Below, piece after piece: positions 25,546 through 48,696 of a stretch of DNA of 64,000 bases. The position numbers were made by a program, and so were the translations under genes. The notes under the pieces are model-generated. The model worked only from the letters and a program-made list of their open reading frames with translations, was not told where the DNA came from and made no database searches. The stretch's first letter is position 1. Each line of letters begins with the position of its first letter. The DNA lies in NCBI RefSeq assembly GCF_003063625.1, contig NZ_CP026604.1, positions 2,704,065 through 2,768,064 of the forward strand, written 5' to 3'. Source of the DNA: Saccharobesus litoralis (GTDB lineage: Bacteria > Pseudomonadota > Gammaproteobacteria > Enterobacterales > Alteromonadaceae).

Positions 25546-28500
25546 TTACTTATCGGCCTTTGGTGAACCCATCCAAGCTCGGCCTAAAGCACGCATCGCT
25601 TTGCCTATTTCGTTAATTGGCTCAACTAAATCTGTGCCATTACCACTAAGGTTTTTCTGAATATCACCTAAGGTTTGTGCCACGGCAGCGAGTTGATTAG
25701 CCATTTGCTGCTTAGGATCGGATTCATCACCTAAAGCTTGTTTACGGTTATAGCGGCTACAAATTAATTGCCAACGTTCCTGTTCGGTTTCGCTCATTTG
25801 TCCGCGTAACTGCGCTAGCTTTAATAGGTTTTCCTCCGCGCCCGAGGTTAGGGTTTGCGCCTCACCAACATAGTGATCACCAATTAAACGCATCAGTTCG
25901 TCATGGTTCATTACCGACGAGACTTTTTCCGCCATCTTGTTCATATTTCGGTATGAACCTTGAAGCTTAAATGGCGGCTCGGTGCGGTACTCTTCCGCGG
26001 TAGCGGCTGACTCAATATATTGCAGGTTAACTTTCAAGATCACTTCCTGAATGGCTAGCATATGTTTAAGGACAGAAACTATCTCGTTTACTTCGGCACC
26101 ACTGTAATCATGGCTTAAGTCGGTGCTGGCGATTTCCGCACCTTGTGCCATATCGACAAACTTATATACGTCATCCATATCGCGTAGCGCTAATGGCGCT
26201 AGCACAGGATTCGAGGTTAAGCTGTTTTCGATATAACTCAGGGCGAACTGCTTTTCTTTACCGCCCAATACGTCACCTAAGTTGTAGATATCGGCACGGT
26301 TGGCAAGCATGTCCGGTACTTTAAATACGTCACCCGATTCTGTGTATGGGTTACCCGCCATACAAACACAGAACTTCTTGCCACGCATATCATAGGTTTT
26401 GCTTTGGCCTTGCCAAATACCTTCAATACGGCGCGTACCGTCACACAGCGAGATAAACTTCTGCAAAAACTCTGGGTGAGTATGCTGAATATCATCTAAA
26501 TACAGCATGACATTGCTACCCATCTCTAAGCCTAGGTTAAGTTTTTCTAGCTCTTGGGCGGCAGTCGCATTTGGTGCTTGGTTTGGATCCAGTGAGGTGA
26601 CATCATGACCTAACGACGGGCAGTTTATTTTCATAAACACCAAACCAAGGCGATTAGCCACATATTCCATTAAGGTAGTTTTACCGTAACCTGGCGGTGA
26701 AATAAGTAACAACAAGCCCATTAAATCGGTACGTTTGTTATCACCTACTGTACCCATCTGCTTGGCGAGGTTGTCGCCAATAATATGCAAATAGACATCG
26801 TTGATAAGCTTGTTACGCACGAACGAACTAAGCGGATTGGCTTTAAAGGCTTCTAACTGCAGTTCAGAACGATAGCGTTCGACCAACTCGTGTCTTAGCT
26901 CATGATAGCGATTAAAGTTAGCAACGTCTTGCAGACTAAATTCGGCTAAGCGTTGGCTAAATTCATCCAGAGTTAGTGCTAAGGTGCCGCTTTCAACTCG
27001 CTTATGATCACTTAATAAGCCTTGTACCTGAGCATCAAGTTGTACCTGAGTCACGGTTCGTGGCAGTGATTGGCAGATCAAGATAGCCGCCGCTTCGGTC
27101 AAATAATGTTGGCTCGCAGCCGAACCTTCAGTTTCGCTAGTTGCTTGTTTTGTGACAAAAGCGCTGAGCCAAGACAAACATAACTGCCATTGTTCTTTAA
27201 GACCACTAATGCTGTTTGCTGTCGTTTGAACTTTTTTCGACTTTAAACGGGTTTGTTCTATTAACTCGGCAAACTGAGTCATGGCAGTGACATAGTCTTT
27301 GTGATGACCGATCTGCTGCAAATATTCAACAAACTGATTAGCCAGTTGCTGACCGGCTTGGCTTTGCTCAAGGTTTAATTCAGGCTTAGCTAGCTCTAAA
27401 CTAAGGTAATTAGCGGCATCTAAACACAGCTTTTTGTTTAAGCTGCTGTCATCGGCTAAACCGAAGGCCAAGCTAAAGGCTTGCAAGGCGCTGTTTAGCT
27501 CTGAAATTAACTGTTCAAAACCTTGGCGACTGCCAAGCGATTCTGCCAACAATGCGGCGCTTTGTGCGTGACGTTGCCAAATAGTTTGCTTGGCTTGTAC
27601 TTGTGCATCGAATTGCAAAAATAGTGCGGCTAAGGCTCGACAATCGGCATTAAAGCGCAATAGGCCTGCTTGCTGGTGAATCGGTAATAACGCAGATAAG
27701 ATCTTCACCGCATCATTGTCATGAATACCTTTTTCGTAACCTTCTTGGTAACGCGGCGCGATAAATTTACGTACCACATCGACCAATTTATCTTGCTCAG
27801 CAACCCAGCCGTACAAGTCTTTTAAGCAGTAACCATGTACTTGCTGTTCGGCATCTTGAATGATTTGATAAGCCAAATACTCGGCGCGACAGACTTTGTC
27901 GTTTTCCGATACCAGATTTTGCTGCCAGTACGGCTTTAGTTCTGTAATTTCTGGTTCGTTAACCGCTTCAAAATAGTCAGTACCCGTTAGATGCTTAACC
28001 ATTTTGCCTTCACGCGGTAATAAGGTGAGATCCAAGACTTGTGAGTTTACACTAAACTTGTGCTTACCTAGCTTGATCACCGAACCGCCATCTTCAAAGA
28101 TATCTTGCTTATCGCGCAGGCTACGAATGGCTTGTTCTTTGGCGGCTTTTACCTTGGCTTCAATATCGTCAGCTTTAACTTGATCATCTAAATCACGTAG
28201 TTGCTGAGTCAGTTCACCGAGTTTAAGCACCATAGGATCAGAGGCAAAATAGGTATTTAACTGATCGGTATCTTGGAAACTGCTAGCACGACGGTTAACC
28301 CCGCTGATAATCCGCTCGGCGGCACTTTGCAGGTTTTGAGCGCGACGCTGACGTTCTTCCAATAAGGTTTGTTTACGACTTTCAAACGCGTCGTGTAACT
28401 CTTCACGCTTGGTTAGAATATCGGATAAGAACTGATCGTACTCACTGAATTTAGATTCTAGTTCTTCTAATTGCACTAACAGGCGAGATAGCTGTTCGTC

Positions 28501-30687
28501 GGCCTTTTCTGGCGTATCCGCCATGGCTAACGCACTATTAATGCTTTGTCCGAACAAACGGAATTGTGCGGCAAACTCAGCAACAGCTTCGCCTGAACCC
28601 AAGTCTTTTTGACGATTACGGCCAAGCGCTTTAACTTGGTTAAGCTGGGCGTAGATCTCGGATATATCATCTAAGATCTGGGTGCGTACCGTGGCATCTT
28701 CGACTTTTAAGGTATTAAGGATCTCGGTTAATAGATCTAAGCCTGCGGATAATTCAGCTAGCTTGTCGTTAAGTGGTTTCAGTTCTACCACTAATTCGAC
28801 GTGTTCTATTTTGTCTTTTAGTTCGCTGATCTGCGTATCGTATGGGGCTAGCGCTTTATCACCGGCTAAAAAGGTGACCGTAGCTTGGCTAACTTCGTCA
28901 TAACGTTCGGCGACTTCATCATCAAGCTGCTGCAAACGTGTGGTATTGATATAGCGTTGTTCTTTTAAGCTAATCAAATGACCACGCTGTTGGCGCAATT
29001 CGTTTAGGCAGGCCACATATTCTTCGGGTAGTTTCCAATCTGGAATGCGAATACTGCTGATGATGGCTTGCTGTTTTTCTTCTGCTTCGCTTAAGGCTTT
29101 TTGCGCTTGGTTACGAATTTGCTCAACTTTAACAAACTCGTCGATCACTAGATCGGCATTGCCACTTATTTCGCGAACTGTATTGCCGATACCCGCCAGT
29201 TCTTCGTCATCTAACCAGTAAAACGCATCAAATAATGATTTACTGTTAGCGATTAAATCTTCATACAAGCGGCGACTTGGATTCGGATCTTGGATCATGC
29301 GATGTAAGCTGGTTAGCTCACTAATACCACGCACTAACTCTTTGTTGCCGATACGACTGTAAAAAGTATCTTTACTCGGCTGTTTAGCGGCAAACTCTTG
29401 GCTGAAGTAGGGGGTATTCCACACTTGCATTGGATGCACGCGAGTTGGCTCTTCTTCGGCACTAAAGATCAGCGCTTGGCCATCTTCATATAAACAGTAA
29501 CCATGACCGTAAATTGGGTTTTGCAGCTCTTTACGGATCAGGTTATACGAGAATAAACCGACTAAACCTTCTTCTGGCTCGTAGAATACGAACAAGACAT
29601 CTTCGCCATTTGGTGAGCGGATCGCTCGTTTAAATGCCAGCCCTTCAATTTGATCAGGGAAAGATTTGGTTTCACCATTTTGCAGGTAGTAACCACCCGG
29701 GAAAATAATACCGTGATCTTCAGGTAACGAAATACACGCGGAGCCAATTGCATCAATACGATTGACTTGATTGTTGCGGGTATTAAACACCAAATAGCGG
29801 ATCTGCTTTTCCCGATAGGGTTGGATCTTTAATAAGATCAAGCTACCGACTTCGGCGTAATGGATCTGGGCGTCGGCTAAGCTTTGGGTTTTATCTTCGA
29901 CAGGTTCACGATAAATGCCTTGGCCATCTTCGGTATTGTCTTCAACCTTGATGGTCAGGTCGCCACCCACAGTTTCAACAAATACTTTATCCAGAATACT
30001 GATATGTGGATGCTTACCGGATACATGGTCTTCACGCGATACGGCTTGCCATTCAAAGTCATGCGACGCCGACTTTTTGATTGCCCGCTCACCACGGTTA
30101 TCGATATAAGTGGCAGTACCATCTTTATTGATTTGCCACTGGAAGACGCGAATATCGGTAACTTGGCGGCCAATTTGGAAAATGGCAAATAGTTGCTCGC
30201 CTTGCACCTTTAATTGGATCAAGCGCGAGCTTTTGTAGTAGATATAAAGCTCTTGGAATTCTTGCTGGAATTTTGCATCGGCTAAAAAGGTACCGTCGAT
30301 AGGTACATCTTGAATATCCACTTTCTGTTGTTGTGAAGAGCTATCGTCGGCATTACTAAGCTTGTATAAGCTAAATACATCGCTGACTTGGGTTTCTTTT
30401 TTAAGACCAATAAAGACGTTGTAACCAAATAATAATAAGTCGCCAACTCGAACAATATCGCGTGCTACACAGTTGTTTTCGGTACGCACTCGAATACGGC
30501 TAGCCACTTCCAGTGGAGCTTGACCAAACTCGTCGATACGCGCTTGGTTTAAAGCATCAACTTGGTTTTTCAGCTGTTGCGCTTGTTCGTTAAGACGTGC
30601 GCAGATCACTTCATAAGCGCCACCTTGGGTGACAGCTGAATCTAAAACGCTTTCTTCAAGGTTTTCGATTGAATTAGGTTCTGACAT
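25546..30687 (-). CDS. Giant (1713 aa) coiled-coil protein with a C-proximal AAA+ (MoxR/AAA_5-like) ATPase domain. It is the last gene of an NfeD-flotillin operon.
   Basis: Walker A ISPPGYGKTT (nt about 26685-26711). Walker B MLYLDDIQH. Long heptad-rich central region. Confidence 0.6.
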   Translation of the reverse strand: MSEPNSIENLEESVLDSAVTQGGAYEVICARLNEQAQQLKNQVDALNQARIDEFGQAPLEVASRIRVRTENNCVARDIVRVGDLLLFGYNVFIGLKKETQVSDVFSLYKLSNADDSSSQQQKVDIQDVPIDGTFLADAKFQQEFQELYIYYKSSRLIQLKVQGEQLFAIFQIGRQVTDIRVFQWQINKDGTATYIDNRGERAIKKSASHDFEWQAVSREDHVSGKHPHISILDKVFVETVGGDLTIKVEDNTEDGQGIYREPVEDKTQSLADAQIHYAEVGSLILLKIQPYREKQIRYLVFNTRNNQVNRIDAIGSACISLPEDHGIIFPGGYYLQNGETKSFPDQIEGLAFKRAIRSPNGEDVLFVFYEPEEGLVGLFSYNLIRKELQNPIYGHGYCLYEDGQALIFSAEEEPTRVHPMQVWNTPYFSQEFAAKQPSKDTFYSRIGNKELVRGISELTSLHRMIQDPNPSRRLYEDLIANSKSLFDAFYWLDDEELAGIGNTVREISGNADLVIDEFVKVEQIRNQAQKALSEAEEKQQAIISSIRIPDWKLPEEYVACLNELRQQRGHLISLKEQRYINTTRLQQLDDEVAERYDEVSQATVTFLAGDKALAPYDTQISELKDKIEHVELVVELKPLNDKLAELSAGLDLLTEILNTLKVEDATVRTQILDDISEIYAQLNQVKALGRNRQKDLGSGEAVAEFAAQFRLFGQSINSALAMADTPEKADEQLSRLLVQLEELESKFSEYDQFLSDILTKREELHDAFESRKQTLLEERQRRAQNLQSAAERIISGVNRRASSFQDTDQLNTYFASDPMVLKLGELTQQLRDLDDQVKADDIEAKVKAAKEQAIRSLRDKQDIFEDGGSVIKLGKHKFSVNSQVLDLTLLPREGKMVKHLTGTDYFEAVNEPEITELKPYWQQNLVSENDKVCRAEYLAYQIIQDAEQQVHGYCLKDLYGWVAEQDKLVDVVRKFIAPRYQEGYEKGIHDNDAVKILSALLPIHQQAGLLRFNADCRALAALFLQFDAQVQAKQTIWQRHAQSAALLAESLGSRQGFEQLISELNSALQAFSLAFGLADDSSLNKKLCLDAANYLSLELAKPELNLEQSQAGQQLANQFVEYLQQIGHHKDYVTAMTQFAELIEQTRLKSKKVQTTANSISGLKEQWQLCLSWLSAFVTKQATSETEGSAASQHYLTEAAAILICQSLPRTVTQVQLDAQVQGLLSDHKRVESGTLALTLDEFSQRLAEFSLQDVANFNRYHELRHELVERYRSELQLEAFKANPLSSFVRNKLINDVYLHIIGDNLAKQMGTVGDNKRTDLMGLLLLISPPGYGKTTLMEYVANRLGLVFMKINCPSLGHDVTSLDPNQAPNATAAQELEKLNLGLEMGSNVMLYLDDIQHTHPEFLQKFISLCDGTRRIEGIWQGQSKTYDMRGKKFCVCMAGNPYTESGDVFKVPDMLANRADIYNLGDVLGGKEKQFALSYIENSLTSNPVLAPLALRDMDDVYKFVDMAQGAEIASTDLSHDYSGAEVNEIVSVLKHMLAIQEVILKVNLQYIESAATAEEYRTEPPFKLQGSYRNMNKMAEKVSSVMNHDELMRLIGDHYVGEAQTLTSGAEENLLKLAQLRGQMSETEQERWQLICSRYNRKQALGDESDPKQQMANQLAAVAQTLGDIQKNLSGNGTDLVEPINEIGKAMRALGRAWMGSPKADK

Positions 30688-30699
30688 AAATACAGACTC

Positions 30700-30995
30700 T
30701 TGCTAAATTCATTATGTTTGTGGGCGAGCATTGTCGAGATAAATCTCGACCTACAAGGTTATTTGTAGGTGCGTTCGACAAGGGGAGGTACCTACTAAAT
30801 CAGCTAATTAGCTTAATGGCTTGGCTGTTTATTGTAGGTTCGACGCTGGCGTCGTATTTGAAACGATGACGAAGCAGCAGCTTCGACCTACAAAGGATTT
30901 AGCAAACTATTTAATTTAAATAAGCACCCAAAGGGTTATTTATAACCCTTGTCGAGGCGCCAAAAGTAGGCGCCTTAAGCAAGCCTCGACCTACA
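30700..30995. repeat. Cluster of REP-like palindromes between the giant ATPase gene and the flotillin gene
   Basis: Multiple …tcgacctacaa / ttgtaggtcga… units. Confidence 0.75.
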
Positions 30996-30998
30996 ACT

Positions 30999-33002
30999 TT
31001 ACTTTTTACCCGCTACCGCTGATGAAATAAGGTTCATTAGCTCTGGGTTTTTATCTGCGTTTTGCAGGAATTTAGCAATTAATGCTGTGGTGGCGGTGTC
31101 TTTGATTTCACCAGAGGCACTACCAAAACCCGCGACTAGTTCTTTGGCGTCTTCCACAAAGCTGGCATCGCCGTTGAAATGGTCTTTAAAGGCTGTGGTT
31201 AAGGTATGGCTTTTATTAATGGTTCCGTCAATTGATTTACCCACAGATAACGATTTAACAAAGCTGTCGAAATAAGCGGTATCGCCACCTACAATATCGA
31301 TATTGGCTTGCTTAAGTGCTTCGGCCAGTACAACAGCTTGTTCTTTAGCAATGCCGACATTGGCTTCGATAGACTGCAATACTTGCTCATGCTGCTTGTC
31401 TAGCTTCATGCGGAATTCTTCGTGTTCACGCTGCTGCTCAGACATAGTTGCCATGGCTTCAAATTTCTTAGTCATACCTTCCGCCTCGGCAGCGGCTTTC
31501 TCAGCAAGTACCTTAGCGTTTGCTAACCCTGTTTTCTCAACTGCATCGGCTTGAGCTTCGGTTACGCGAACCTCTGCCATACCTTCTTTTTCAGAGGCAA
31601 TGGCTTTGGCTTCCATGACTTTGGCTTGCGCTAAACCTTCTGCCGCTTTAAGGGCTTCTAAACCTTCGGCTTCGCGTTTTTGGGCTAAGGCGTTTTTCTC
31701 TGCCACTTCTAGCTTAGCTTGAGCAAGCATGGTTTTCTCTTTAGCGGTGAATTCAGCTGATTTCTCGGCCGCTTGTGCTGCTTTGATTTCGCGTACTAAG
31801 TCTTGCTCGGCTTTGGCTTCTGCTTCAATGATTTGCGCTTGTTTTTGACGATCGGCTTCTGATACTACACGAAGTTCTTTAATTTCTTCTTCACGTTGTG
31901 CCACAGTCTTATCAACTTCTACGCGGCTACGCACCACTTCGGCAATCTCGCGTTTCTCGTGTTCGATCAATTTTTCGTTGGCAATTTTTTGTAGCGAGGT
32001 TTCTTTTTCGCGCTCAATTCTTTCAAGTTCGCGCGCTTTAATCACACGCTCTTCTTCAATTGCCACAGCGCGTTGTTTGTTGTTTTCAGCCACTTCAACT
32101 TCACGCTGTTTGTTTTGCTCTTGCACTTCAAGCTCTTGTTCAGCTTGTACACGAGCTTGTTCCGCTTTTAGTTTTTCTTCGTGCTTAACCCGTTCGGTTT
32201 CTGCTTGTTCACGTGCTTGAACGGTTTCAACTTCACGTTTTTGCTTAGCTTCAGCATCGGCTTGTTGACGTTCAAGTTCTAAAATAGCTTCGCGGGTTTC
32301 AACGTCTTTGCGCTTGATCTTCATTTCTTCTTCGCGCTGGAATATATTAGTTTGAATGTTTTGCTCTGCGGTTAATTCGGTGATCTTACGAATACCTTGT
32401 GAATCCAAGATATTGTCTGGATCTAGCTTGTTGATTGGAGTTTGTTCAAGGTAGTCGATGGCGGCATCTTCTAAAACATAACCGTTTAAGTCAGTACCAA
32501 TGTTATCGATAATCATGTCGCGGAAGTTATCGCGTTTGGCATAAAGGTCGATAAAGTCGAGTGATTTACCTACGGTTTTTAACGCTTCTGAGAATTTAGC
32601 GTTAAACAAATCTTCAAGCGTTGCTTGGTTAGACGCGCGTTCACAACCTATGGCTTGAGCAACTTTTAATACATCGTCGCGGTTTTTGTTAACGCGTACG
32701 AAGAATGCCACTTTAATATCGGCGCGAATATTATCTTTACAGATCAAACCATCGGTACCGTTACGGTCGATTTCGATAGTTTTTAATGAGATATCCATGA
32801 TTTCCATTTTATGGAAAACCGGCACAACCACTGAACCAGTGAAGGTTACTTTAGGTTCAGAGCGCATGGTATTAACGATCATAGCTTTACCTTGTTCAAC
32901 CTTACGGTAGAGGCTTGCTAAGAAAAAGATAATACCTAATCCAAATACAAATACACCGACTGCCAGTGCAACCCAGAATTCCCAACCGTTGCTTAATTCC
33001 AT
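30999..33002 (-). CDS. yqiK: Flotillin-like SPFH/band-7 protein (YqiK family) with long coiled-coil tail
   Basis: N-terminal TM, then SPFH domain, then E/K/A/Q-rich coiled coil. 667 aa. Confidence 0.8.
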   Translation of the reverse strand: MELSNGWEFWVALAVGVFVFGLGIIFFLASLYRKVEQGKAMIVNTMRSEPKVTFTGSVVVPVFHKMEIMDISLKTIEIDRNGTDGLICKDNIRADIKVAFFVRVNKNRDDVLKVAQAIGCERASNQATLEDLFNAKFSEALKTVGKSLDFIDLYAKRDNFRDMIIDNIGTDLNGYVLEDAAIDYLEQTPINKLDPDNILDSQGIRKITELTAEQNIQTNIFQREEEMKIKRKDVETREAILELERQQADAEAKQKREVETVQAREQAETERVKHEEKLKAEQARVQAEQELEVQEQNKQREVEVAENNKQRAVAIEEERVIKARELERIEREKETSLQKIANEKLIEHEKREIAEVVRSRVEVDKTVAQREEEIKELRVVSEADRQKQAQIIEAEAKAEQDLVREIKAAQAAEKSAEFTAKEKTMLAQAKLEVAEKNALAQKREAEGLEALKAAEGLAQAKVMEAKAIASEKEGMAEVRVTEAQADAVEKTGLANAKVLAEKAAAEAEGMTKKFEAMATMSEQQREHEEFRMKLDKQHEQVLQSIEANVGIAKEQAVVLAEALKQANIDIVGGDTAYFDSFVKSLSVGKSIDGTINKSHTLTTAFKDHFNGDASFVEDAKELVAGFGSASGEIKDTATTALIAKFLQNADKNPELMNLISSAVAGKK

Positions 33003-33226
33003 ATAAAACTCCTTCGCTTACATTAATTTTTGGTTGTTTTGTTAGTCATTGAAGCTAGAGCTTCAATCCGGTGGCTTTAAGAGGAATAAGCTGACGAGTT
33101 TGACTGTTGATAATCCGCTTATTTTAATAAAGTCACTAGATACCAGCTTTCGCTGGTATGACCATATTTTTTAATCCTTTGCGTATTAGTTGTTCAATTT
33201 TTTTCTAATACGCTTTGACTATACTT

Positions 33227-33871
33227 TTACTGATTTAATAATTGTTGTTCGGTCACAACAAGGTAGGTGTCCTTGTTGTTGTCATAACTAATTAACGCCA
33301 CGCGCTCGCCTTTGCTTATAGTGTTTGGCTCATCGGCTCTAACACTTAACACCATGGAGCCATCTTCGGTTATGGCTTGGCCAAAGCTTTCTGTCACTTT
33401 TAACGTTGTTACGGTACAAATGGTGCCTGTAATATCACATTTGCTAACCGCTTCATGGGTATGAAAGAAGCGGCGCAGTGGTTTAACACTGAGCGTGGTT
33501 AATGGTAAAGCAATTACAACTGCAGCCATGGCTAATAAGCTGCCCATAGCTGTTGCGGTTAGCATTTCATCTGCTAACGGCATTAGATACTTACGCCCCA
33601 AGTAAGCAAAAATTAAGGCGTAAAAATCGATTAGGGTTATGACTACCATCAAAGGTACGCCATCTAACCCCAACTTTTGTAACCATGAGGTTTGGCCTGA
33701 CTCAGCATCAGTATCGACTTCGATATCTGGATCAATAATTTCGATATCGACTAAACCTAAAAATGATACCAACCAAAAAAGTAGCAATATGACGAATAGG
33801 GTAGAGAAAATATTGAGAGGGAAGCTAAATACTTCGTTTAAAAACATGTCCGTCATCATAGATAAGTGCAC
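33227..33871 (-). CDS. yqiJ: NfeD-like membrane protein (YqiJ family)
   Basis: Three TM helices followed by an OB-fold-like C-terminus. Sits upstream of the flotillin gene, as in yqiJK. Confidence 0.65.
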   Translation of the reverse strand: MHLSMMTDMFLNEVFSFPLNIFSTLFVILLLFWLVSFLGLVDIEIIDPDIEVDTDAESGQTSWLQKLGLDGVPLMVVITLIDFYALIFAYLGRKYLMPLADEMLTATAMGSLLAMAAVVIALPLTTLSVKPLRRFFHTHEAVSKCDITGTICTVTTLKVTESFGQAITEDGSMVLSVRADEPNTISKGERVALISYDNNKDTYLVVTEQQLLNQ

Positions 33872-35591: not shown

Positions 35592-36392
35592 CTACGACAT
35601 TTGATTCGCCAAACATCTACCTAGCAAAGCAAAATATTCACTAAAATACCTTCCCACTTCGACTCTATGTTCGTCTAACGGGTACAGCCCAACCTTAGCT
35701 TCATCAGACTGTTTTGTGCCTTTAACCAGAAACTCGTTACTTAATCGACTGTCTTGAATATAAGCCTCAAACGCTCTGGCACACATCTCTTCTGGTAAGG
35801 CGTAGTAAACCTGATTAAGTTGTTTATCTACTTGTGCGGCGACTTGAAAATAACGACTCGATTTATGCTTTTTACTCGCATCTAAGAAAATATGCGAGAA
35901 AGCTTTTTGCAAAGCTTGGTTTAAAGGGTGATCGATCTTTTCTTCACCTAATAACCAAGCATGCGATGCAAATTTGGATTTAGGCAACTGCAAGAACTTA
36001 CTACAGATATAGTGATCAAAAGCATGGAACCATTCATGTGCTAAAGCGCCGCCACCGGCATTTTTAGCCAAGGCTAATTCTTTGGTGCCGACATTATAGT
36101 GCGCCATATTGTGGCGTTGGCCACCAGTACCAAAAGCTAAAGACAGGGTACTGCGTAGGGAAATCACTTGCCTAGGCACTTGCAGAATTAGCGCGAGATC
36201 CGCCAAGGCATCAAAAATAAGATTGGCGGCGATTTGTTGTTCTTGTTTGGTTACCCATTTGCCTAATCGAATACAGCGAAAACCAAACTCTTGGCGAATA
36301 TCGGTAAAGCTAACATCTTGGTCTTGCCTATGATTAGGGCCTGTACGGTAATAACCGCGTTTAAGCCGGTTGGTTTTAGCAGGTTGTTGCAA
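35592..36392 (-). CDS. Hypothetical protein with an HExxH (HEWFH) zincin-like motif
   Basis: …ALAHEWFHAFDHY…. Confidence 0.4.
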   Translation of the reverse strand: MQQPAKTNRLKRGYYRTGPNHRQDQDVSFTDIRQEFGFRCIRLGKWVTKQEQQIAANLIFDALADLALILQVPRQVISLRSTLSLAFGTGGQRHNMAHYNVGTKELALAKNAGGGALAHEWFHAFDHYICSKFLQLPKSKFASHAWLLGEEKIDHPLNQALQKAFSHIFLDASKKHKSSRYFQVAAQVDKQLNQVYYALPEEMCARAFEAYIQDSRLSNEFLVKGTKQSDEAKVGLYPLDEHRVEVGRYFSEYFALLGRCLANQMS

Positions 36393-39982: not shown

Positions 39983-40798
39983 TTATTTTTCTTGTGGTTT
40001 AGGCAAGATTGCAAGTTCGCCGGGCATCATAATCTGATAAGGATGAGTTAAGTTTATTCGCCAGCGACCTTTATGGTGGTACGGCTTGCCTTTAACAATA
40101 GCCTTACCTCCAACCCAAGAGCGATTTAATTCGTATAATCGATGGATGTTGCGTTGGTTTTGCTTAACGCCGATATATAGAGCGCGATTCAGTACAATCC
40201 AGGTTGTATTGTCTTCATCAGTCCAAACATTGCTGATTTGGCCTATGTATTCATGATAGCGTTTTGAGTTTAATGTATGGTCAGCGACAACTTTAGGTTG
40301 CCAAAACTTATCTGTCCAAATACCGCGTTGTGCATTACGTGCTGCCGTTTCATGCTCGCGGTAGCAGCGCCAAAACTTATCATTTTTACCTATGACAATC
40401 TGCTTAGCTAAACCTTTATCCAGCATAGCGGCTTGCAAGTTTTGACCTTTTTCGTTGTGGATATGCGCCAACATACGGTTATACACATCGATTATATCTT
40501 TGTCGTATACCAGTTTTACGGTTTTGCTTGGGCCGATAAGTTGCTCTAGTTGCTGTTTGGCTTGGTGCGCAAACGGTTCTGAATTCTTTGTCGATTTATA
40601 GTCTATTTCAGGGGCATCGATACCAATAAGGCGAATTTTATTGCCATCCTGCAAGCGTATGGTGTCCCCGTCAATAACTTGTTGTACACGTTCAGTTTGT
40701 TCAAAGTTTTTCGGTTGGCATGAATGAGCCGTGGCATAGGTACTTAATAAGCTGAGGCTAAGCGCAATAAATAATGGTTTCACAACTGTCCTTGCCAT
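39983..40798 (-). CDS. Secreted staphylococcal-nuclease (SNase/thermonuclease)-like protein with C-terminal extension
   Basis: Signal peptide. …DGDTIRL…RLIGIDAPE…. Confidence 0.6.
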   Translation of the reverse strand: MARTVVKPLFIALSLSLLSTYATAHSCQPKNFEQTERVQQVIDGDTIRLQDGNKIRLIGIDAPEIDYKSTKNSEPFAHQAKQQLEQLIGPSKTVKLVYDKDIIDVYNRMLAHIHNEKGQNLQAAMLDKGLAKQIVIGKNDKFWRCYREHETAARNAQRGIWTDKFWQPKVVADHTLNSKRYHEYIGQISNVWTDEDNTTWIVLNRALYIGVKQNQRNIHRLYELNRSWVGGKAIVKGKPYHHKGRWRINLTHPYQIMMPGELAILPKPQEK

Positions 40799-41310: not shown

Positions 41311-42000
41311 CTAAGCTACGGATAGTGAAAAGGACGATTGCTGAGGAGAAGAAAATGCTCTAGCAAGATTGTCGTTTGAGGCTGCCGCTGATCTTTTATT
41401 TTTTGAGAAGTTCAATTCGTATTGTTTCACCACACTTTCTAGTTTTGAAGATTTTTCGAAGATATGTAACTTCGTTGTTTGCTCATATTGGTTAGCGATA
41501 CAATCGAGGTTGTGACTCAATAAATATCGATACAAACTAGCTTTTGAATACCCTCTTTGAGCACACCATTGGTCTAATAATATATAGTGCTCATTAAACC
41601 TTTGTATGCAAATGGGGGGGTATTGTGCACTTGCTCTGTTTACTTGTATGCTCTTCCACGAAAATAGTTTCGCCATTGTTCTAATTTTCACGGGCTGAAC
41701 ACAGAAATATTTGCTCAACTCAGATATCGATAGCAAACAATTAAATTTATTCTGCTCGCTTGATTGCAGATGGCGGATTGCTTCTGATTTTTTGACATAA
41801 AAGTTCCCCAGCTTTTTAGAATGCAAAGGCTGATGGAGTTCTACACCTTTTTCGATTAGCAACTTGAAAGCATCACCAAAGCTGTATAAATATTTTTGGC
41901 TGATTGCCTCTAACTCTGTAATTGTTATCACCTCTTCACTGGAGCAAAATCGAAGTGATGGTTTGGTAAGTTTCGTTAGTAGTTGGTCTATATATTCCAA
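41311..42000 (-). CDS. Hypothetical, possibly HTH-containing regulator. Contains a G7 tract (on the + strand).
   Basis: …GYSKASLYRYL… HTH-like segment. Poly-G at 41614-41620 inside the CDS. Confidence 0.35.
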   Translation of the reverse strand: MEYIDQLLTKLTKPSLRFCSSEEVITITELEAISQKYLYSFGDAFKLLIEKGVELHQPLHSKKLGNFYVKKSEAIRHLQSSEQNKFNCLLSISELSKYFCVQPVKIRTMAKLFSWKSIQVNRASAQYPPICIQRFNEHYILLDQWCAQRGYSKASLYRYLLSHNLDCIANQYEQTTKLHIFEKSSKLESVVKQYELNFSKNKRSAAASNDNLARAFSSPQQSSFSLSVA

Positions 42001-42423
42001 AGCATATAGGGTTACCTGTTTGACTTTTTAGCTTGATAGTTTTTTTTTAACAGTGTGATAAATTAGGCTTTGTAAAGCAAACAGTGCGAAATGGGGGGCG
42101 GAAATTCAGACTCCACTGCTAGTTGCACTATTATGAATCATTTTTAGTTGTTCAGAGTGCAATCTGCAATAACCACATTGTTAAAATGCACTGAAAAACC
42201 CGTGCAAACGAAGAAAAAGCATGCAGATGAATATTTTTTGAATTTTTATTTTGAGTGAGGAGGGATCCGAGATTATAGTGGTAAATATGTTTTTGCCAAG
42301 TTGATGTGTTGATAAATTTACTTTTTATTAAATATTCATTTCAACCGTTATCTTACTGAATAAAACAATGGGAATATTAAGCTTGTATTAGAAATACATT
42401 GAAAATATCGATAGAATCGCGTC

Positions 42424-43587
42424 ATGCAGAATACTTTCCAAAAAACTTACCAAGATGATGATACTGAAGGCCTTAGTCAAAACGATTTGGATTGTCTTAG
42501 AGATAAAATCCTTCGAAGCCATCATGAATTTCGAAGCTCGGTTAAGCAGGGAGATAAAGATTACATCAGGGAATTACACAAATATTCTAAATTTAAACAA
42601 GATGAAAAAATCTTATCTCGCTTAGACACCGACTATAAAAAATTGTCAAAGTATTTTATATGCGCATCAAAATTAGAAGTGGCAAGAATAAAGCCTCGAC
42701 TGATTAATGTAGATGAAAGTAATTTATTTAAACGGCTCTTTAAACTGGTAAGACATTCTTGGTCTATGCCTTATTCAAAAGGGTATGGTCGCCGAATTAG
42801 ATTTATTGTTTGGGATGATTTTCACGACTCTGTTATTGGGATTATAGGTTTACAATCCCCCCCAGCTGATCTAAAAGCAAGAGATCAGCTTTTTGATTAC
42901 CCCGAAAATCAGAAATTACCACTTGTTAATCAAACTCTGGATGTGTACACATTAGGTGCAATCCCCCCGTATTCCAATTTATTGGGGGGGAAGTTGGTCG
43001 CTGGACTTGTAGGAGCTGATGCAATTAGGCAAGTATACTGGTCAAAATATGCTGGAAAGAGATCGCAAATCAATAATGTATTAGTGGAACAACCGCTGGT
43101 TGGTGCTACTACAACTAGTGCTTTTGGGCGTAGTTCGATATACAACAGGCTTAAATATCAAGATAGACTTTTAGCAAGACCAATAGGTTATACTCGAGGA
43201 TATGGGACAATACATTTAGAACCATATTTTGAGGAGCTTACTGGAATACTTAAGGCGCATAACATATACCACAATGGCGGCTATGGAAAAGGGCCAAAGC
43301 CTAAATGGCAAAATGCAGTTAGAGCATTGAAGATATTAGGGCTTAACTCTGAGTATCTGCAGCATGGGCTTGGAAGAGAGGTATTTCTTTTCGAGTTTTT
43401 TGACGATTTAAAAACTGGGATGTCAGGAGGTAGTTTTGGTCGAGCGCTTCTACTAGATTCTGAAGAATACTCGCAATACTGGTTAGAACGATGGGCTGAG
43501 CCTAGAGCTATAAGATACCCTGATTGGAGATGCTTTGATGTAAATGGATACTTCCTTAGTTGCTTTACCTCTAATTACTCGGCTTAG
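42424..43587 (+). CDS. Unknown 387-aa protein with several Gly-rich conserved-looking motifs. Gene 1 of the AT-rich island.
   Basis: GYGRRIRFIVWDD, LGGKLVAGLVGADAIR, GYTRGYGTIHL, NGGYGKGPKPKW. Confidence 0.5.
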   Translation: MQNTFQKTYQDDDTEGLSQNDLDCLRDKILRSHHEFRSSVKQGDKDYIRELHKYSKFKQDEKILSRLDTDYKKLSKYFICASKLEVARIKPRLINVDESNLFKRLFKLVRHSWSMPYSKGYGRRIRFIVWDDFHDSVIGIIGLQSPPADLKARDQLFDYPENQKLPLVNQTLDVYTLGAIPPYSNLLGGKLVAGLVGADAIRQVYWSKYAGKRSQINNVLVEQPLVGATTTSAFGRSSIYNRLKYQDRLLARPIGYTRGYGTIHLEPYFEELTGILKAHNIYHNGGYGKGPKPKWQNAVRALKILGLNSEYLQHGLGREVFLFEFFDDLKTGMSGGSFGRALLLDSEEYSQYWLERWAEPRAIRYPDWRCFDVNGYFLSCFTSNYSA

Positions 43588-43659
43588 GGTTAGAATTTAG
43601 TTGCATTTTAGTTTTTTTTGCGTAACTTTAAGGGGACTGTGACCAAATAGGGAAATATA

Positions 43660-46326
43660 ATGCGTATCCAAATGTCTGATCGTCTGCGGACATGGCTTAA
43701 AGACTCTCCTATCCTTCCTGAACAATTTACTTTAAAATCAGCATCAGGTAACAGTTCATCTCGATATCAGATCCAGGAAAGGGATGAAAGCGGCAAAGTT
43801 TCTAATGTATCTGGTAGAATTGGTTTTAAGGGTTTTGTTCTTAAAGTTAAAGATATCGATACTCATGCTATATATGCGGCGAAATTTACTATCCCCCAAG
43901 ACTACGATCACAGTCGTGATGAATTTCATGAATCCCGTTTAGCAACCCTACTGCAGCCTGCAAGCAATTTGTTTTCTATTCCTAAATCTTGTGGCAGGGT
44001 GAAGTTTTTTGAGGGAATGCCAAAAGAAGATTGCTTTGATGAATTTGTGTGCTTTATTTCAGATTGGGTAGAGGGAGAAACTTTGGAGTCTTTGTTAAAT
44101 AGAAGAGACGACATAGTTTCACCGTACTTTGCCAGCAAGTTGTCAATTCAATTGAACAAAGCTCTGGGTTTTCTAAATCGAGTTAATTTAAAACATGATG
44201 ACTTGCATTATGGAAATGTAATGGTGTTGACACCGGAACGTGATCTAATATTTGATGATGAAGACAGAGATCAATTAAATATAAAAGTCATAGATACTGG
44301 TAGCTTAAAGCCATATAAACAAGAAAATAGTAAGCCATATGATGATTTACTCCACTACACAAAAATACTAGTCGATATCTTCAACGTCCTTATTAAAAAT
44401 AGAAGAACGGTCTCAAATAACAGGCTTTTTTTCGAACATTTTGAAAGAGTAATAAAGTCCCTAAATTGTGATGATCCTCAGCGATTTTTCCCAAATCTAT
44501 ATGCTGATATTCAAAGTGAACTGAAAAAGCTTGAGCATTACTTGAGTTACCAAGACAGTGAGTTTGAAGAAACTTTCCATCCATTCGATGCTATTTCAGC
44601 TGAACAACTGGCAAGTGATCAAATGCTTTTGGATTTATTTGTAGATAACATCCCATGGATGGATGATGTAACATCTAAGGCTTCAATTGTACTTACCGGT
44701 CCAAGAGGATGTGGTAAATCAATGATGTTACGTTATTTGAGTGTACGTGCTCACCTACATAACCAAACTGGTAATTTAGAGCAAATTCAATCTCTTCCTT
44801 TCTTTGGCGTTTTTGTTAGTTGCGCCACAGAATTACAAAATAGCCTTTCGATTTTCTCAAGAGACAAAAGTGGAGACTTGCTTGATAAATATAGCGATGA
44901 AGTCGTAACTTTTTTTAATATAGTTGTAGCGCGAGAATTATTCAGAAGTATCGCAAGTGTCAAAAAAAATCAGGTAGCAAGTAATTATTTTTGTATTTTA
45001 GATTCGACCGAAGAGGAATTAGTCAACATAACTAAGTCTTATTTGGGAGATGATTGGCTAAGCAGAAGATTTTCAGGGACTCCATTATCTTGGCAAGCTG
45101 CGGAATCTTTAGACAAGCTAAGGCTTAAGCTAAGTGCATCTATGCTAAATGGTACCAAAACCTGTAAAAAGCTACCTGATAACTATTTAGCTGAGCTAAC
45201 ATCTTCATTAAGCAGCAGTTCGAGGTATTTTCGAGTAAATCCAGTTGCCTTTTTATTGGATGATTATACTAGTTATAGGATACCAATAGACGTTCAAAAA
45301 TTAATCAATAAAATTGTCTTTGAAAGAAGAGCTTCACACATATTTAAAATTTCTTGTGAAAAATACGGCTTTTCTCCCAAAGACAACAGCAATATCCGTA
45401 TTGAAGCAGACCGTGAATTTCATGAAATTGACGCTGGAGCACATTTACTAAGTGCGCTTGGGTTAGCTGAAACCACTTCTGCTAAACGCAGAAAAGATGC
45501 TCAACATTTTATTGAGAATCTAATTGATCGCCGTTTACGTATGGCAAAGTGGTCGGGCACAACAAAATCACTAATCGGTAAAAGTGATTATGACACATAT
45601 ATATCTGTTGCTAGGGCTATACATGCTAACAAAGGTGTCAAAAATGAAAGTATTTATCATGGGTTAGAGGTGTTGGCCGACATTTGGAGCGGTGATATTG
45701 CAACAATCTTGCAGGTAGCTAGAACGATGTTTTCTTTAGCGCAAGTCAAGAAAGTTACGACAAAACAAATTTCTAAAGCAGTACAACATCGATCCATTGT
45801 AAATATATCTAGGTCTTACTTGGAGAGAATTGAAGCTTTTCACCCTAATGGACCTGAGTTACAAGAGGTCGTAAGAAATTTTGGTGCGACTGTCACCAAC
45901 CTGCTTATTCATGGAGATCTTGTTAACAAAAAAAGCAAATCGATTAACCCAAGAATGGTTCCTAGGATTGAAATGACTTTGGACTTTGGGGATGATTTAA
46001 TGCTGCAGTTGAAAGAGCAAAACCCGTTAGCGGCGCAAGTTGCGAAGGAGTTATTGAGGAGAGCTATATTCATTGAATTAGATCATGGTAGGAGCAAAGA
46101 AAGTAATAAGAAAGGCACACTTAGATGGGAGTTTCGAAGAATATACCTTCCTGGAGCTGGAGCTGCGCTAGGGAAAAATCATTACATTGAAATAAAAACA
46201 GTTAAAGAATTGATAATGCTTCTTACAGATCAAGCTCAGTTTAAGAGCATTATGGATGGTAGGTATCTAAAAAATAAAGGAATGGACGATTTATTCTCAG
46301 AAGAATATGAAACGGAGGATGGTTAA
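43660..46326 (+). CDS. 888-aa fusion protein. N-terminal eukaryotic-like Ser/Thr protein kinase fold, then a P-loop NTPase, then an about 350-aa helical C-terminal region.
   Basis: Gly loop GRIGFKGFV. AxK (YAAK75). Catalytic loop HDDLHYGN (179-186). DTG in VIDTGS (211-216). Walker A GPRGCGKS (347-354). Candidate Walker B FLLDDY (531-536). Confidence 0.65.
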   Translation: MRIQMSDRLRTWLKDSPILPEQFTLKSASGNSSSRYQIQERDESGKVSNVSGRIGFKGFVLKVKDIDTHAIYAAKFTIPQDYDHSRDEFHESRLATLLQPASNLFSIPKSCGRVKFFEGMPKEDCFDEFVCFISDWVEGETLESLLNRRDDIVSPYFASKLSIQLNKALGFLNRVNLKHDDLHYGNVMVLTPERDLIFDDEDRDQLNIKVIDTGSLKPYKQENSKPYDDLLHYTKILVDIFNVLIKNRRTVSNNRLFFEHFERVIKSLNCDDPQRFFPNLYADIQSELKKLEHYLSYQDSEFEETFHPFDAISAEQLASDQMLLDLFVDNIPWMDDVTSKASIVLTGPRGCGKSMMLRYLSVRAHLHNQTGNLEQIQSLPFFGVFVSCATELQNSLSIFSRDKSGDLLDKYSDEVVTFFNIVVARELFRSIASVKKNQVASNYFCILDSTEEELVNITKSYLGDDWLSRRFSGTPLSWQAAESLDKLRLKLSASMLNGTKTCKKLPDNYLAELTSSLSSSSRYFRVNPVAFLLDDYTSYRIPIDVQKLINKIVFERRASHIFKISCEKYGFSPKDNSNIRIEADREFHEIDAGAHLLSALGLAETTSAKRRKDAQHFIENLIDRRLRMAKWSGTTKSLIGKSDYDTYISVARAIHANKGVKNESIYHGLEVLADIWSGDIATILQVARTMFSLAQVKKVTTKQISKAVQHRSIVNISRSYLERIEAFHPNGPELQEVVRNFGATVTNLLIHGDLVNKKSKSINPRMVPRIEMTLDFGDDLMLQLKEQNPLAAQVAKELLRRAIFIELDHGRSKESNKKGTLRWEFRRIYLPGAGAALGKNHYIEIKTVKELIMLLTDQAQFKSIMDGRYLKNKGMDDLFSEEYETEDG

Positions 46327-47508
46327 ATGGTTAGGCGACGTTCGGGTATATTAAATAAATTCTCAGTCAGTGAAGCCTGTATAGACCTTCCTGATATTAC
46401 GCTTTTCAATCATGATAAAATTAAAACCTTTGATTTAGTTATAACTACAGTTGGGTTTGAAGATAGAAGTCTTGCTTTTGTTCAAGAAAGTTGTTCTGAG
46501 TTTCAATGTGAATATGCTTTAGTTGGGAAATATAAAACAAATAAAGTAGAAAATGAGATAAACGAAGCTAGTATAACTAATTTTTTTATGTCCCACTCAA
46601 TCCATACTAGTGAAGTTTGTGCCGATAGTCCGTTAGCTATCAGTAAAAAAATCAATGAAATATTAGACAATATTAGTCAAGAAAAAAAAATCATCCGTTG
46701 TTTCTTTGACATTAGCTCAGCCTCCAATAGATTTATATTGTCCGTGTTGCAAACACTTACAAGTTCAAATCTAGAGTTAGGCTTAAGTATATTTTATGCA
46801 GAGCCGACAGACTACTTCCCCCAAAGCTCAGAATACCATTCAAACCCAGAGGCTTGTATAAGCGAAGCGTTAGCTAGTTCTTCGAAAGAGCCATTAATCG
46901 AAACTGGCGTAAGTGCGGTAAATGAGAATGAATTATACCCTGGACATTTTCCTGAAGTTGGCAAGCCTTTCCTAATATCTATTCCTTCATACCGTATGAC
47001 TAGAATGGGGAGGTGTATCCAGCAAATTGATGAGCAACTTCTTTCTTCTTCAAACAAAGATAGTTGTTTCTGGATATTTGGTGAACCCAAAAAAGAAATT
47101 TTAAAATGGCGTACGATGTACCAAAAAAGTATTGTTGAAAACTATTTGAAGAAATTCACAACCGAAGATTCAGATAGTTATCAGCCTCCCTTAACTGAAG
47201 AAAATAGTAAGCGTTGTTGTACTTTAAACTATAAGGAAATCCTGGCTGCTTTGATTGAGCTGGCAGATAGTAATTTGGGTAAAAGGATAACTATTGTTCC
47301 TATGGGATCAAAGCTTCAGGCTGTTGGGGTGGCATTGGCATTGTACGCTAGAAGCGAATGTTCTGTGCTTCATGCGTCACCAGGAGCATTTAACCCAAAC
47401 CGATACTCCAATGGAATTGGAGACAAATGGCTCTTGGAGTTTGAAAGTATTAGTAACGTTAAACGAATAGTTAGTAAAATTGGCGAGTTAGAGTTAACGC
47501 CCATATAA
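46327..47508 (+). CDS. Unknown 393-aa protein, translationally coupled to the kinase-NTPase gene
   Basis: Start codon immediately follows the upstream stop. No motif I recognise. Confidence 0.45.
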   Translation: MVRRRSGILNKFSVSEACIDLPDITLFNHDKIKTFDLVITTVGFEDRSLAFVQESCSEFQCEYALVGKYKTNKVENEINEASITNFFMSHSIHTSEVCADSPLAISKKINEILDNISQEKKIIRCFFDISSASNRFILSVLQTLTSSNLELGLSIFYAEPTDYFPQSSEYHSNPEACISEALASSSKEPLIETGVSAVNENELYPGHFPEVGKPFLISIPSYRMTRMGRCIQQIDEQLLSSSNKDSCFWIFGEPKKEILKWRTMYQKSIVENYLKKFTTEDSDSYQPPLTEENSKRCCTLNYKEILAALIELADSNLGKRITIVPMGSKLQAVGVALALYARSECSVLHASPGAFNPNRYSNGIGDKWLLEFESISNVKRIVSKIGELELTPI

Positions 47509-47563
47509 GAATAAGAGCTTTATATTAATTTAGAGACAAAAATAGTCGAATAGAGACACTTAA

Positions 47564-47977
47564 ATGGAATGCAAAAATCAAACATCGACGCCAAGTACAT
47601 TGATTGACGAAATAGACAAGTCAATTAATAAGTCACTTAAACATGCTAGAAAAAATTACTACTATTCTAGCGTACTTATAGTTACATCAATATTGGCAAG
47701 CTTTTTAACGGCAATAGCTGTTGCTGATGGAACAGAGCTGTTTAGTAAATTTCAGATGGCTTTATTTGCGGCTATTCCTGGAACCGCAATTACACTGTCT
47801 TCAAGAATGAAATTTGAAGAGAAATGTAAATGGTATTATAAGAAGTTTCATGACATAAGCGCATTAAAACGCGATATTGAATATAACAATTTCCCGAAGG
47901 AAGAAGCATCTAAAAAACTATCCTTAATACTGAGCCAAAGTGAAAAACTCTATCCTGGATTTGGCTCTAATGATTAG
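47564..47977 (+). CDS. Small two-TM membrane protein (candidate membrane effector)
   Basis: Hydrophobic helices at aa about 33-56 and 63-80. Charged C-terminal tail. Confidence 0.45.
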   Translation: MECKNQTSTPSTLIDEIDKSINKSLKHARKNYYYSSVLIVTSILASFLTAIAVADGTELFSKFQMALFAAIPGTAITLSSRMKFEEKCKWYYKKFHDISALKRDIEYNNFPKEEASKKLSLILSQSEKLYPGFGSND

Positions 47978-48081: not shown

Positions 48082-48696
48082 TTGAAGTCTTATTTTCCTA
48101 GATTATTAAGCTATACGCGGTTTATTGGGATTGCTTCTAGTGTCGTTGTTCCTATGTGTAGTTACTTAACATCTAAGCTTGGTAAACCAACCGGTATCCA
48201 ATTTGTCGATTCTACAAAAATAGAGGTTTGCCATATTATCAGAGCCAAAAGAAACAAGGTGTTTGAGGGAGTTGCTAGACATGGTAAAGGCACAATGGGA
48301 TGGTCTTTTGGTTTTAAGTTACACTTAGTTATCAATCACTTCGGTGAAATAGTTTCATTGAAACTAACAGAGGGGAACATAGATGATCGCAAACCAGTCC
48401 CTGAAATGACAGAGTCACTATTTGGTAAACTTTATGGTGACAAAGGTTATATTAGCAAAGCGCTATCGGGAGAGTTGCTTGAAAAGGGAGTTGAATTGAT
48501 AACAACAATCCGTAAAAACATGAAGAAAAAATTCATCTCATTATGGGATAGAGCCATACTTAAAAAGCGGTTCATAATAGAAACAGTGAATGACCAATTG
48601 AAAAACATTTCGTACATTGAGCACTCCAGACACCGCAGCGCACATGGCTTTATGCTGAATTTGCTTGGCGGTTTAATCGCATATAGTTTAAAATAA
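48082..48696 (+). pseudogene. IS982-family transposase, 5'-truncated remnant
   Basis: 204 aa starting at TTG. …KGTMGWSFGFKLHLVINHFGEI…GDKGYIS… resembles the IS982 Tnp C-terminal two-thirds. Confidence 0.55.

Follow-up and report, generated by a model that had tools for sequence, protein, structure and literature searches.

A DruA, kinase-ATPase and CARF6 gene cassette as a candidate defence system in Saccharobesus litoralis

What do the genes of an AT-rich island in Saccharobesus litoralis encode, and do they protect the cell against foreign DNA? The island occupies positions 42424-47977 of a 64,000-nucleotide stretch of contig NZ_CP026604.1 (positions 2,704,065 to 2,768,064 of the forward strand), which we call the window. 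An earlier reading, made from the sequence alone, had described four co-oriented, tightly spaced genes and likened them to an uncharacterised anti-phage or abortive-infection system. We followed up this sequence-only reading with profile searches, structure prediction and a census of related loci. We are highly confident that the island carries a cassette of three genes, which code for a DruA protein, a fusion of a protein kinase with an ORC/Cdc6-like AAA+ ATPase, and a protein of the CARF6 group; this cassette probably serves in defence, and may do so by marking the DNA of its host. The open reading frames (ORFs) of the island and their domains, with lengths in amino acids (aa), are the following.

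42424..43587, + strand: ORF1, DruA/DUF4338-family protein with a GNAT fold, 387 aa
43660..46326, + strand: ORF2, kinase and ORC/Cdc6-like AAA+ ATPase fusion, 888 aa
43822-44559 (ORF2 residues ~55-300): eukaryotic-type protein kinase domain
44581-45594 (ORF2 residues 308-645): ORC/Cdc6-like AAA+ ATPase
45595-46326: uncharacterised C-terminal region of ORF2
46327..47508, + strand: ORF3, tandem CARF protein (CARF6 group), SAVED-like pseudo-dimer, 393 aa
ORF3 residues ~30-200 (approximate): CARF domain 1
ORF3 residues ~210-393 (approximate): CARF domain 2
47564..47977, + strand: ORF4, two hydrophobic helices, weakly SLATT-like, 137 aa

The arrangement of the genes had been read correctly. All four ORFs lie on the plus strand, the ATG of ORF3 directly follows the TAA of ORF2 in the same frame, and ORF4 starts 56 base pairs (bp) past ORF3. 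ORF1 and ORF3 had been left as unknowns, and both could be assigned to families. ORF1 was a strong match to DruA/DUF4338 (Pfam PF14236, 1e-58; PADLOC DruA, 1.2e-76). Its AlphaFold model, made with 24 homologues, reached a predicted local distance difference test score (pLDDT) of 85.8 and showed a GNAT core, in agreement with the description of DUF4338 as a GNAT domain (PMC10853773), and the glycine-rich 'LLGGKL' loop of this fold is intact. The top structural neighbour of the DruA model was Mom, an adenine-modifying enzyme according to its PDB title and a GenBank note, and one short DruA scored 26.0 bits with the Pfam Mom profile, just under the threshold of 27.1. Since a direct profile comparison of DruA with Mu Mom was not significant, the link between the two is suggestive at most. 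We predict ORF1 to be a nucleic-acid modifying enzyme, perhaps one that acts on adenine N6. Neither ORF1 nor ORF3 matched a solved structure by sequence. Against their closest aligned homologues, DruA was 45-62% identical, the kinase-ATPase 30-42% and the CARF protein 32-37%.

ORF2 is a fusion of a kinase and a nucleoside triphosphatase, as had been proposed. The second part matched the ORC-CDC6-like family PF24389 at 6.8e-39 in Pfam. With the single sequence, the Pkinase match (1.7e-06, 28.1 bits) was under the Pfam gathering score of 31.7, and a profile of the ORF2 family matched hundreds of solved protein kinases, with E down to 9e-10. The kinase residues K75, H179/D181/N186 and D212, as well as the Walker A motif GPRGCGKS (K353) and the Walker B motif FLLDD (D534/D535), are invariant across 15 ORF2 homologues of 30-42% identity, among them K75, D181 and K353, which the sequence-only reading had picked for mutation. 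Judged by these motifs, both the kinase and the ATPase therefore look active. ORF2 falls outside the NCBIfam Sll1717 subfamily, since it scored 33.8 bits against a cutoff of 75. On the fused PADLOC profile 'CARF6--CARF_STK_AAA' (1187 positions), ORF2 (1.5e-38) and ORF3 (2.3e-09) matched consecutive parts, which argues for a physical complex of the two proteins. That the two genes are a single fusion broken by a nonsense mutation was ruled out by more than 100 homologue clusters of 840-900 aa with a separate downstream CARF gene. Four proteins of ~1180 aa (loci L065, L067, L072 and L075) were considered as kinase-AAA-CARF fusions and set aside; the one scanned, that of L065, is a kinase/AAA_16/TPR STAND protein.

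ORF3 had no Pfam match. Eleven CARF6 profiles of PADLOC matched it; the best of these matches (3.1e-11) took in the first domain only. The PADLOC CARF6 profiles, PDLC01910-01925, reportedly come from the classification of Makarova et al. 2020 in Nucleic Acids Research. The predicted model of ORF3 was confident (pLDDT 90.7) and had a Rossmann-like CARF fold, and because of this model we describe the protein as a tandem CARF that forms a SAVED-like pseudo-dimer. Its closest structures were the cyclic-oligoadenylate sensors Can1, Csm6, Can2, Card1 and Cam1, and SAVED domains. E45, R47, D128, S/T130, R226 and K329 were conserved among 57 sequences, of which D128-x-S/T130 and K329 may belong to the ligand pocket (a motif of the [DN]x[ST]...[RK] type).

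In order to place these genes among their relatives, one genome per species was scanned, which returned 68 loci, and contigs from exact homologues were added. In the resulting 44 non-redundant loci with a full-length kinase-ATPase, we called ORFs, built hidden Markov models (HMMs) and clustered the neighbouring genes. These loci belong to Pseudomonadota, Acidobacteriota, Gemmatimonadota, Bacteroidota, Actinomycetota, Planctomycetota and Chloroflexota, plus two archaeal metagenome-assembled genomes (MAGs). The CARF gene stands immediately downstream of the kinase-ATPase in 43 of the 44 loci, mostly overlapping it by a few bases, and DruA is adjacent in 39, three of them short versions confirmed by Pfam; the junctions between cassette genes are overlaps or a few bases. 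The three genes have also evolved together, as pairwise identities of the kinase-ATPase co-vary with those of CARF (r=0.92) and DruA (r=0.83; Mantel p<=5e-4). DruA lies upstream on the same strand in Gallionella, Acidobacteriota, Gemmatimonadota, Bacteroidota, Planctomycetota and a Methanosarcinales MAG, and also here, and downstream on the opposite strand in Pseudomonas and Xanthomonadales. Relatives of ORF2 were absent from phage genomes, plasmids gave one remote relative, and the enterobacterial variant was not found in E. coli genomes. We found no description, test or phenotype of the trio and no link to DruA in the literature searched, and the paper on Tn7 cargo is silent on it.

ORF4 did not share in this conservation. 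It has the two hydrophobic helices that had been seen in it (residues ~32-54 and ~63-80 by hydropathy), and no homologue in any other census locus, so that the conserved unit comprises three genes and not the four first proposed. Its match to SLATT_1 was 1.7e-4 in NCBIfam (21.5 bits, where the cutoff is 41) and 0.051 in Pfam; its family has 173 representatives, and at most 11 of the 55 scanned touch SLATT_1, SLATT_5, DUF4231 or CyanoTRADDas_TM. Beyond DruA, kinase-ATPase and CARF, the only gene family present in more than three of the 44 loci was one that we call F4, which combines a soluble domain with two C-terminal transmembrane (TM) helices and occurs in at least 14 loci. ORF4 stands directly after the CARF gene, where F4 is found in most of its loci; the two were compared and are unrelated. 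With the 4TM/SLATT-like protein of locus L013, ORF4 aligned at an hhalign probability of 34%. It is a lineage-specific local add-on outside the conserved core, and possibly a membrane effector.

Does the cassette serve in defence? Its surroundings, on which we base this view, make it probable: related loci have a Pf-type prophage with HigBA and barstar, genes of Druantia or of restriction-modification, or nucleases as neighbours, or belong to Tn7 cargo; their distribution over bacteria and archaea is patchy; and the island here is low in GC and has an insertion sequence (IS) fragment. In P. aeruginosa (L001-L004) the kinase-ATPase, CARF and the 2TM protein F4 are followed by DruA on the opposite strand, and the cassette adjoins Pf-like filamentous prophage genes (Zot, coat B, DUF5447, DUF2523), HigB/HigA and barstar; two IMG/VR viral contigs (L082, L083) hold the same four genes of the Pseudomonas type. 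Some related loci are Tn7-like cargo. Others stand beside type I Druantia-like genes and Dcm/Vsr; in Variovorax the DruA cassette and Druantia are side by side, and in a metagenome contig a Druantia-like gene set adjoins the kinase-ATPase/CARF pair. About half of the loci have an extra gene near the cassette, and the rest are flanked by housekeeping genes. Besides F4, the extra genes include those for a 4TM/SLATT-like protein of CBASS type (L005, 1.8e-14; L013, 8.3e-15) and for NOV_C/PDC-S36 (PD-T4-1-like), NurA and DpnII-like nucleases. With relatives among toxin-antitoxin and restriction-modification genes, Druantia, Tn7 cargo and prophages, the defence island of the sequence-only reading is likely. 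In an acidobacterial MAG (L023, 9039-9860), a gene for ThyX, the flavin-dependent thymidylate synthase, sits between DruA and the kinase-ATPase, which is curious in a system suspected of handling DNA modification.

The cassette could instead have a regulatory, DNA-maintenance or mobile-element function in variable regions, or be the decayed remnant of a type I Druantia. Experimental evidence for defence is absent, no PADLOC system definition covers the cassette, some loci have housekeeping flanks only, and ORC/Cdc6 ATPases also act in replication and transposition (PMC10853773). The idea of a remnant fails, however, as the trio occurs in 39 loci without DruB-E, the genes co-evolve, the ORFs are intact and the catalytic residues are invariant. 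The patchy spread over bacteria and archaea, the Tn7 cargo, the prophage, toxin-antitoxin and restriction-modification neighbours and a domain set typical of defence also speak against a role outside defence, which we regard as quite unlikely.

How such a system might work is suggested by what replaces DruA. In the three complete loci without DruA (L046, L047 and L048, from planctomycete, acidobacterial and enterobacterial MAGs), a DNA methyltransferase of Dam-like D12 or N6_N4 type abuts the gene of the kinase-ATPase, at distances of 34, 2 and -10 bp. Furthermore, we found a kinase-less sister operon in 15 loci (within L055-L073, mostly Planctomycetota, Acidobacteriota and Nitrospirota MAGs), in which a Dcm C5-methylase, an HD-CE protein (PF24391), an ORC/Cdc6 ATPase and CARF6 were present in all 15 and in this order in 14; seven have an additional gene of a family whose scanned member is Vsr. 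This operon, which appears to be uncharacterised, is the core of the PADLOC CARF6 profiles. Its ATPase (PF24389, 1e-97) and CARF6 protein (PDLC01917, 6e-84, full length) are homologous to those of the cassette, and it has the same four-function layout with a DNA-modifying enzyme first. It differs in having a C5-cytosine methylase for DruA and a separate HD-domain protein, which corresponds in position to the fused kinase domain. DruA is thus replaced in position by DNA methyltransferases, and its slot is filled elsewhere by DNA-modifying enzymes. Doron et al. 2018 reportedly found the methylase DruM in type II Druantia where type I has DruA. E. coli with type I Druantia gains a new motif called as 'm6A' (Ojima et al., 10.1101/2024.04.14.589459); type I Druantia has no methylase domain, and the gene behind this mark is unidentified (10.1101/2024.04.14.589459; cited in 10.64898/2026.05.12.722862).

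Because of this exchange of DruA for methyltransferases and the published adenine mark of type I Druantia, we favour the reading that the cassette is an anti-phage or anti-plasmid system that works by epigenetic self-marking, and we give it a probability of roughly 0.5; for the modification-based mechanism as such we see somewhat less than even odds. Self-marking accounts for the exchange, for the fact that in many loci DruA lies on a strand of its own, and for the higher conservation of DruA among the relatives of the window. The role in defence, DNA as the substrate of DruA, the sequence of steps, the part of the kinase as effector and any role of ORF4 are inferred. DruA, with its GNAT fold, would covalently mark the DNA of the host, most likely at adenine N6. 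The AAA+ module, with its translationally coupled CARF6 partner, would assemble on DNA or nucleic-acid intermediates, and the complex would separate unmarked invader DNA, or a nucleic-acid signal derived from it, from marked self DNA. This discrimination would switch on the kinase domain, which would phosphorylate phage and/or host proteins and so stop replication. CARF6 would serve as a nucleotide-binding allosteric regulator, and ORF4 may be an optional membrane-damaging back-up in this lineage.

The same GNAT fold and intact 'LLGGKL' loop could belong to a toxin. DruA would then acetylate aminoacyl-tRNA or another essential target, the kinase-ATPase and CARF proteins would be the sensor that releases or activates it, and the same would hold for type I Druantia. 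An enzyme with an invariant target would be expected to be more conserved than its partners, as DruA is here. However, the enzymes that hold its position elsewhere, DNA methyltransferases, are not toxic, and a modification of the host's DNA has been reported for type I Druantia (10.1101/2024.04.14.589459). In addition, DruA often lies on the opposite strand and is therefore separately transcribed, which is more typical of a constitutive modification gene. Such a toxin is thus very unlikely, even slightly more so than a function outside defence.

Several observations weigh against self-marking. It leaves the CARF ligand and the route from the kinase to DNA restriction unexplained. The presence of a CARF domain would as a rule point to a nucleotide second messenger, and no cyclase or other signal synthase accompanies the cassette. 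In a system that resembles restriction, one would not usually expect a kinase as the executor, and the conserved core has no nuclease. The extra membrane protein or nuclease in about half of the loci fits effector-swapping signalling at least equally well, and the methyltransferases of the three DruA-less loci could be orphans or restriction-modification remnants in defence islands.

Signalling of this kind is what abortive infection would entail. The STAND-like kinase-ATPase would sense a phage product, the CARF protein would bind a nucleotide messenger or an infection-derived nucleotide, and DruA would be an accessory or a regulatory acyltransferase; growth arrest or death would follow via the kinase and a swappable effector, here the 2TM protein ORF4. 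The closeness of ORF3 to cyclic-oligoadenylate sensors and SAVED, with its pocket-type residues conserved, is in line with this, and so are the variable, tightly linked genes, which resemble swapped effectors (4TM/SLATT-like, F4, nucleases), and the weakly SLATT-like ORF4 56 bp after the CARF gene. On the other hand, no messenger synthase was present in the window or the conserved neighbourhood, about half of the loci have housekeeping neighbours and no extra effector gene, ORF4 occurs only at this locus with a SLATT match under every curated threshold, and methyltransferases in the place of DruA would go unexplained. Nothing specific was found for the abortive infection of the sequence-only reading, and the replacement of DruA by methyltransferases points to modification; we rate such a signalling circuit, the main rival of self-marking, as rather unlikely.

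Self-marking can also be put in a bolder form, which is tentative and which we would rather doubt than accept. DruA would be a Mom-like enzyme that adds a non-methyl adduct of acyl or carbamoyl type to host adenine N6, and would thereby be the missing modifier of type I Druantia. The kinase-ATPase and CARF6 would then be a novel type of reader-executor that restricts unmarked DNA by phosphorylation and not by cleavage, and that is exchangeable with DruB-E.

Is the cassette then a Druantia? Both have a full-length DruA, which heads the operon in canonical systems and here, and its role is probably the same, namely the marking of host DNA. In canonical type I Druantia, as seen on four plasmids, DruA is followed by DruB/C, DruD and an 1850-aa DruE helicase. 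A tblastn search of the whole window with three canonical plasmid DruE proteins (large MrfA/DUF1998-type helicases, which all Druantia types have in common) gave nothing at E<=1e-2, and just one ORF of the window exceeds 1500 aa, that of a DUF3686/AAA protein; DruB/C/D gave nothing over the same 64 kilobases (kb) but a 48-aa match at E 0.01. A cryptic Druantia, with ORF2 and ORF3 as remote DruB/C/D, was rejected as HMM searches showed no similarity. Because DruB-E are absent, the cassette is not Druantia. The claim that the island matches no known system thus holds in that no named, validated PADLOC v2 system covers it, and fails in that ORF1 is a component of Druantia. ORF1 is 29-31% identical to the four canonical DruAs, and non-proteobacterial kinase-linked DruAs are equally close to canonical DruA and to ORF1. 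A separate clade of kinase-linked DruAs was not upheld (neighbour-joining support 1/100). Since DruB-E are absent here and the kinase-linked DruAs form no clade of their own, DruA looks, from the sequence comparisons, like a module common to two different partner sets.

DUF4338 was also met elsewhere. On the Roseivivax plasmid pTHAF40_c (L081, 956-7182), a 662-aa long-form DruA follows two HATPase_c_3/MzaB-like ATPases, which is a third genomic context for the domain. In BFVD, the ORF1 model matched proteins of the giant viruses Faunusvirus, Yasminevirus and Dasosvirus (Foldseek E 7e-14 to 1e-9) and a protein fragment from an uncultured Caudovirales (6e-8); DUF4338-like proteins therefore occur in viruses as well.

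ORF2 and ORF3 belong to the same family as the CARF6 'CARF_STK_AAA' group, so far catalogued as sequence profiles only, and differ from it in that CARF is here a separate, translationally coupled gene. The pairing of kinase-AAA and CARF6 is already in PADLOC-DB; what this analysis adds is that DruA or a DNA methyltransferase is its constant partner and that the fourth gene varies. BREX type 2 (Pgl) consists of the PglW kinase, the PglX methyltransferase, the PglY/BrxC ATPase of the ORC/Cdc6 clade and PglZ, and PglW joins a kinase to a STAND/ORC-Cdc6-like domain (PMC12839542). Unlike it, the cassette has no PglZ, PglX/BrxX-type methyltransferase or BrxA/B/L, its predicted active ATPase is much shorter than BrxC, and it has a CARF partner, which BREX lacks. 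No BREX/Pgl profile was among the PADLOC matches of the island proteins, and Pfam found neither PglZ nor a methyltransferase in the ORFs scanned from 25.5 to 53.2 kb. To MADS, ORF2 had weak domain-level matches (mad6, kinase; mad8, ATPase; PADLOC E ~1e-3). The likeness to BREX and MADS is thematic and not one of orthology.

The fold of ORF3 is that of type III CRISPR CARF effectors (Can1, Csm6, Can2/Card1, Cam1) and CBASS SAVED effectors, and it has two CARF-like domains per chain like Can1 and SAVED. In contrast to these, ORF3 has no fused effector domain, and no Cas10, CD-NTase or CRISPR-cas genes lie nearby; neither Pfam nor PADLOC found a cyclic-nucleotide synthase (CD-NTase/Cas10) in the island. 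Stk2 likewise has a eukaryotic-type kinase as the likely enzymatic output of a defence gene, but it consists of one gene and has no AAA+, CARF or DruA partner, and ORF2 has no specific kinship to it in sequence, with only generic Pkinase and PD-T4-6 matches (1e-3 to 1e-2). We rate the cassette as a candidate modification-associated defence that contains an ATPase and a kinase; by theme, Pgl/BREX type 2 and Druantia come nearest to it.

How did the cassette come to this locus? Acquisition by horizontal transfer, with a typical repertoire of defence domains, is supported. The following features flank the four ORFs.

41311..42000, - strand: ORF0, 229 aa, divergent from ORF1, in the low-GC stretch, with a G7/C7 tract
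42001..42423: divergent intergenic region 5' of ORF1, with promoter-like hexamers on both strands by consensus scan
48082..48696, + strand: truncated IS982-type DDE transposase (DDE_Tnp_1_3, Pfam 9.7e-76), the right edge of the island

The island was noted as AT-rich, and its GC content is indeed 36.5% against 42.0% in the rest of the window, below all 227 other 5.5-kb windows (minimum 39.6%). The low-GC stretch spans ~41.0-48.8 kb and therefore also takes in ORF0 (37.2%) and the transposase fragment (37.1%). At third codon positions, GC was ~0.29-0.30 for the genes of the island and 0.40-0.43 for those of malic enzyme, fucosidase and cox1, but lexA, at 0.31, comes close to the island, so that this measure does not cleanly separate the island. 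The right boundary is the one first described, an IS982 remnant and, after it, a gene that reads as LexA in translation. On the left, the homopolymeric tract of the neighbouring gene was found (G7/C7 near 41613, inside ORF0), while its label as a helix-turn-helix (HTH) gene could not be confirmed: ORF0 matched no Pfam, NCBIfam or PADLOC family at E < 0.01. It has no homologue in the other census loci. Between ORF0 and ORF1, the best promoter-like site by consensus scan is on the minus strand (42299-42272, 11/12), and several on the plus strand reach 9/12; such sites are no more frequent than in shuffled sequence. Flanking direct or inverted repeats, a tRNA gene and Rfam elements were looked for at the island and not found. 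The flanking genes scanned were malic enzyme, fucosidase, SNase and cox subunits, with SNase, malic enzyme and fucosidase left of ORF0. ORF2 is identical to the hypothetical protein C2869_09675 of Saccharobesus litoralis.

Other elements of the window deserve mention. An SNase-family nuclease gene (39983-40798, - strand) lies just left of the island, and in Thiohalomonas (L005) an SNase gene (13097-13582) stands beside DruA. The gene at 35592-36392 (- strand) codes for 266 aa and contains LPD1 (large polyvalent protein-associated domain 1), a domain typical of mobile elements, which hints that more of the surrounding region is foreign DNA. At 25546-33871 (- strand), a protein of 1713 aa that combines DUF3686 ('ATPase involved in DNA repair') with DUF7902 and AAA domains clusters on the same strand with a 667-aa ORF without Pfam match and a YqiJ_N membrane protein; this large, uncharacterised ATPase cluster is unrelated to the cassette. 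A group II intron occupies 10852-12847 (+ strand; RF02001, 60.1 bits, 10852-11021; RF00029, 49.6 bits, 12777-12847), and within it a 423-aa ORF (11498-12769) is presumed to encode a reverse transcriptase/maturase.

In summary, our results describe a compact three-gene candidate immune system that ranges from Pseudomonas aeruginosa to methanogen MAGs and is called as a system by no current defence-finder. If it is not defensive, the cassette is still a widespread unexplained operon. Its CARF sensor, which accompanies a eukaryotic-type kinase without CRISPR or a cyclase, raises the question of what such CARFs sense. For DruA, the analysis offers a testable function: because DNA methyltransferases can stand in its place and its GNAT fold is Mom-like, DruA is the obvious candidate for the source of the adenine mark of type I Druantia, which is among the strongest defences of E. 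coli.

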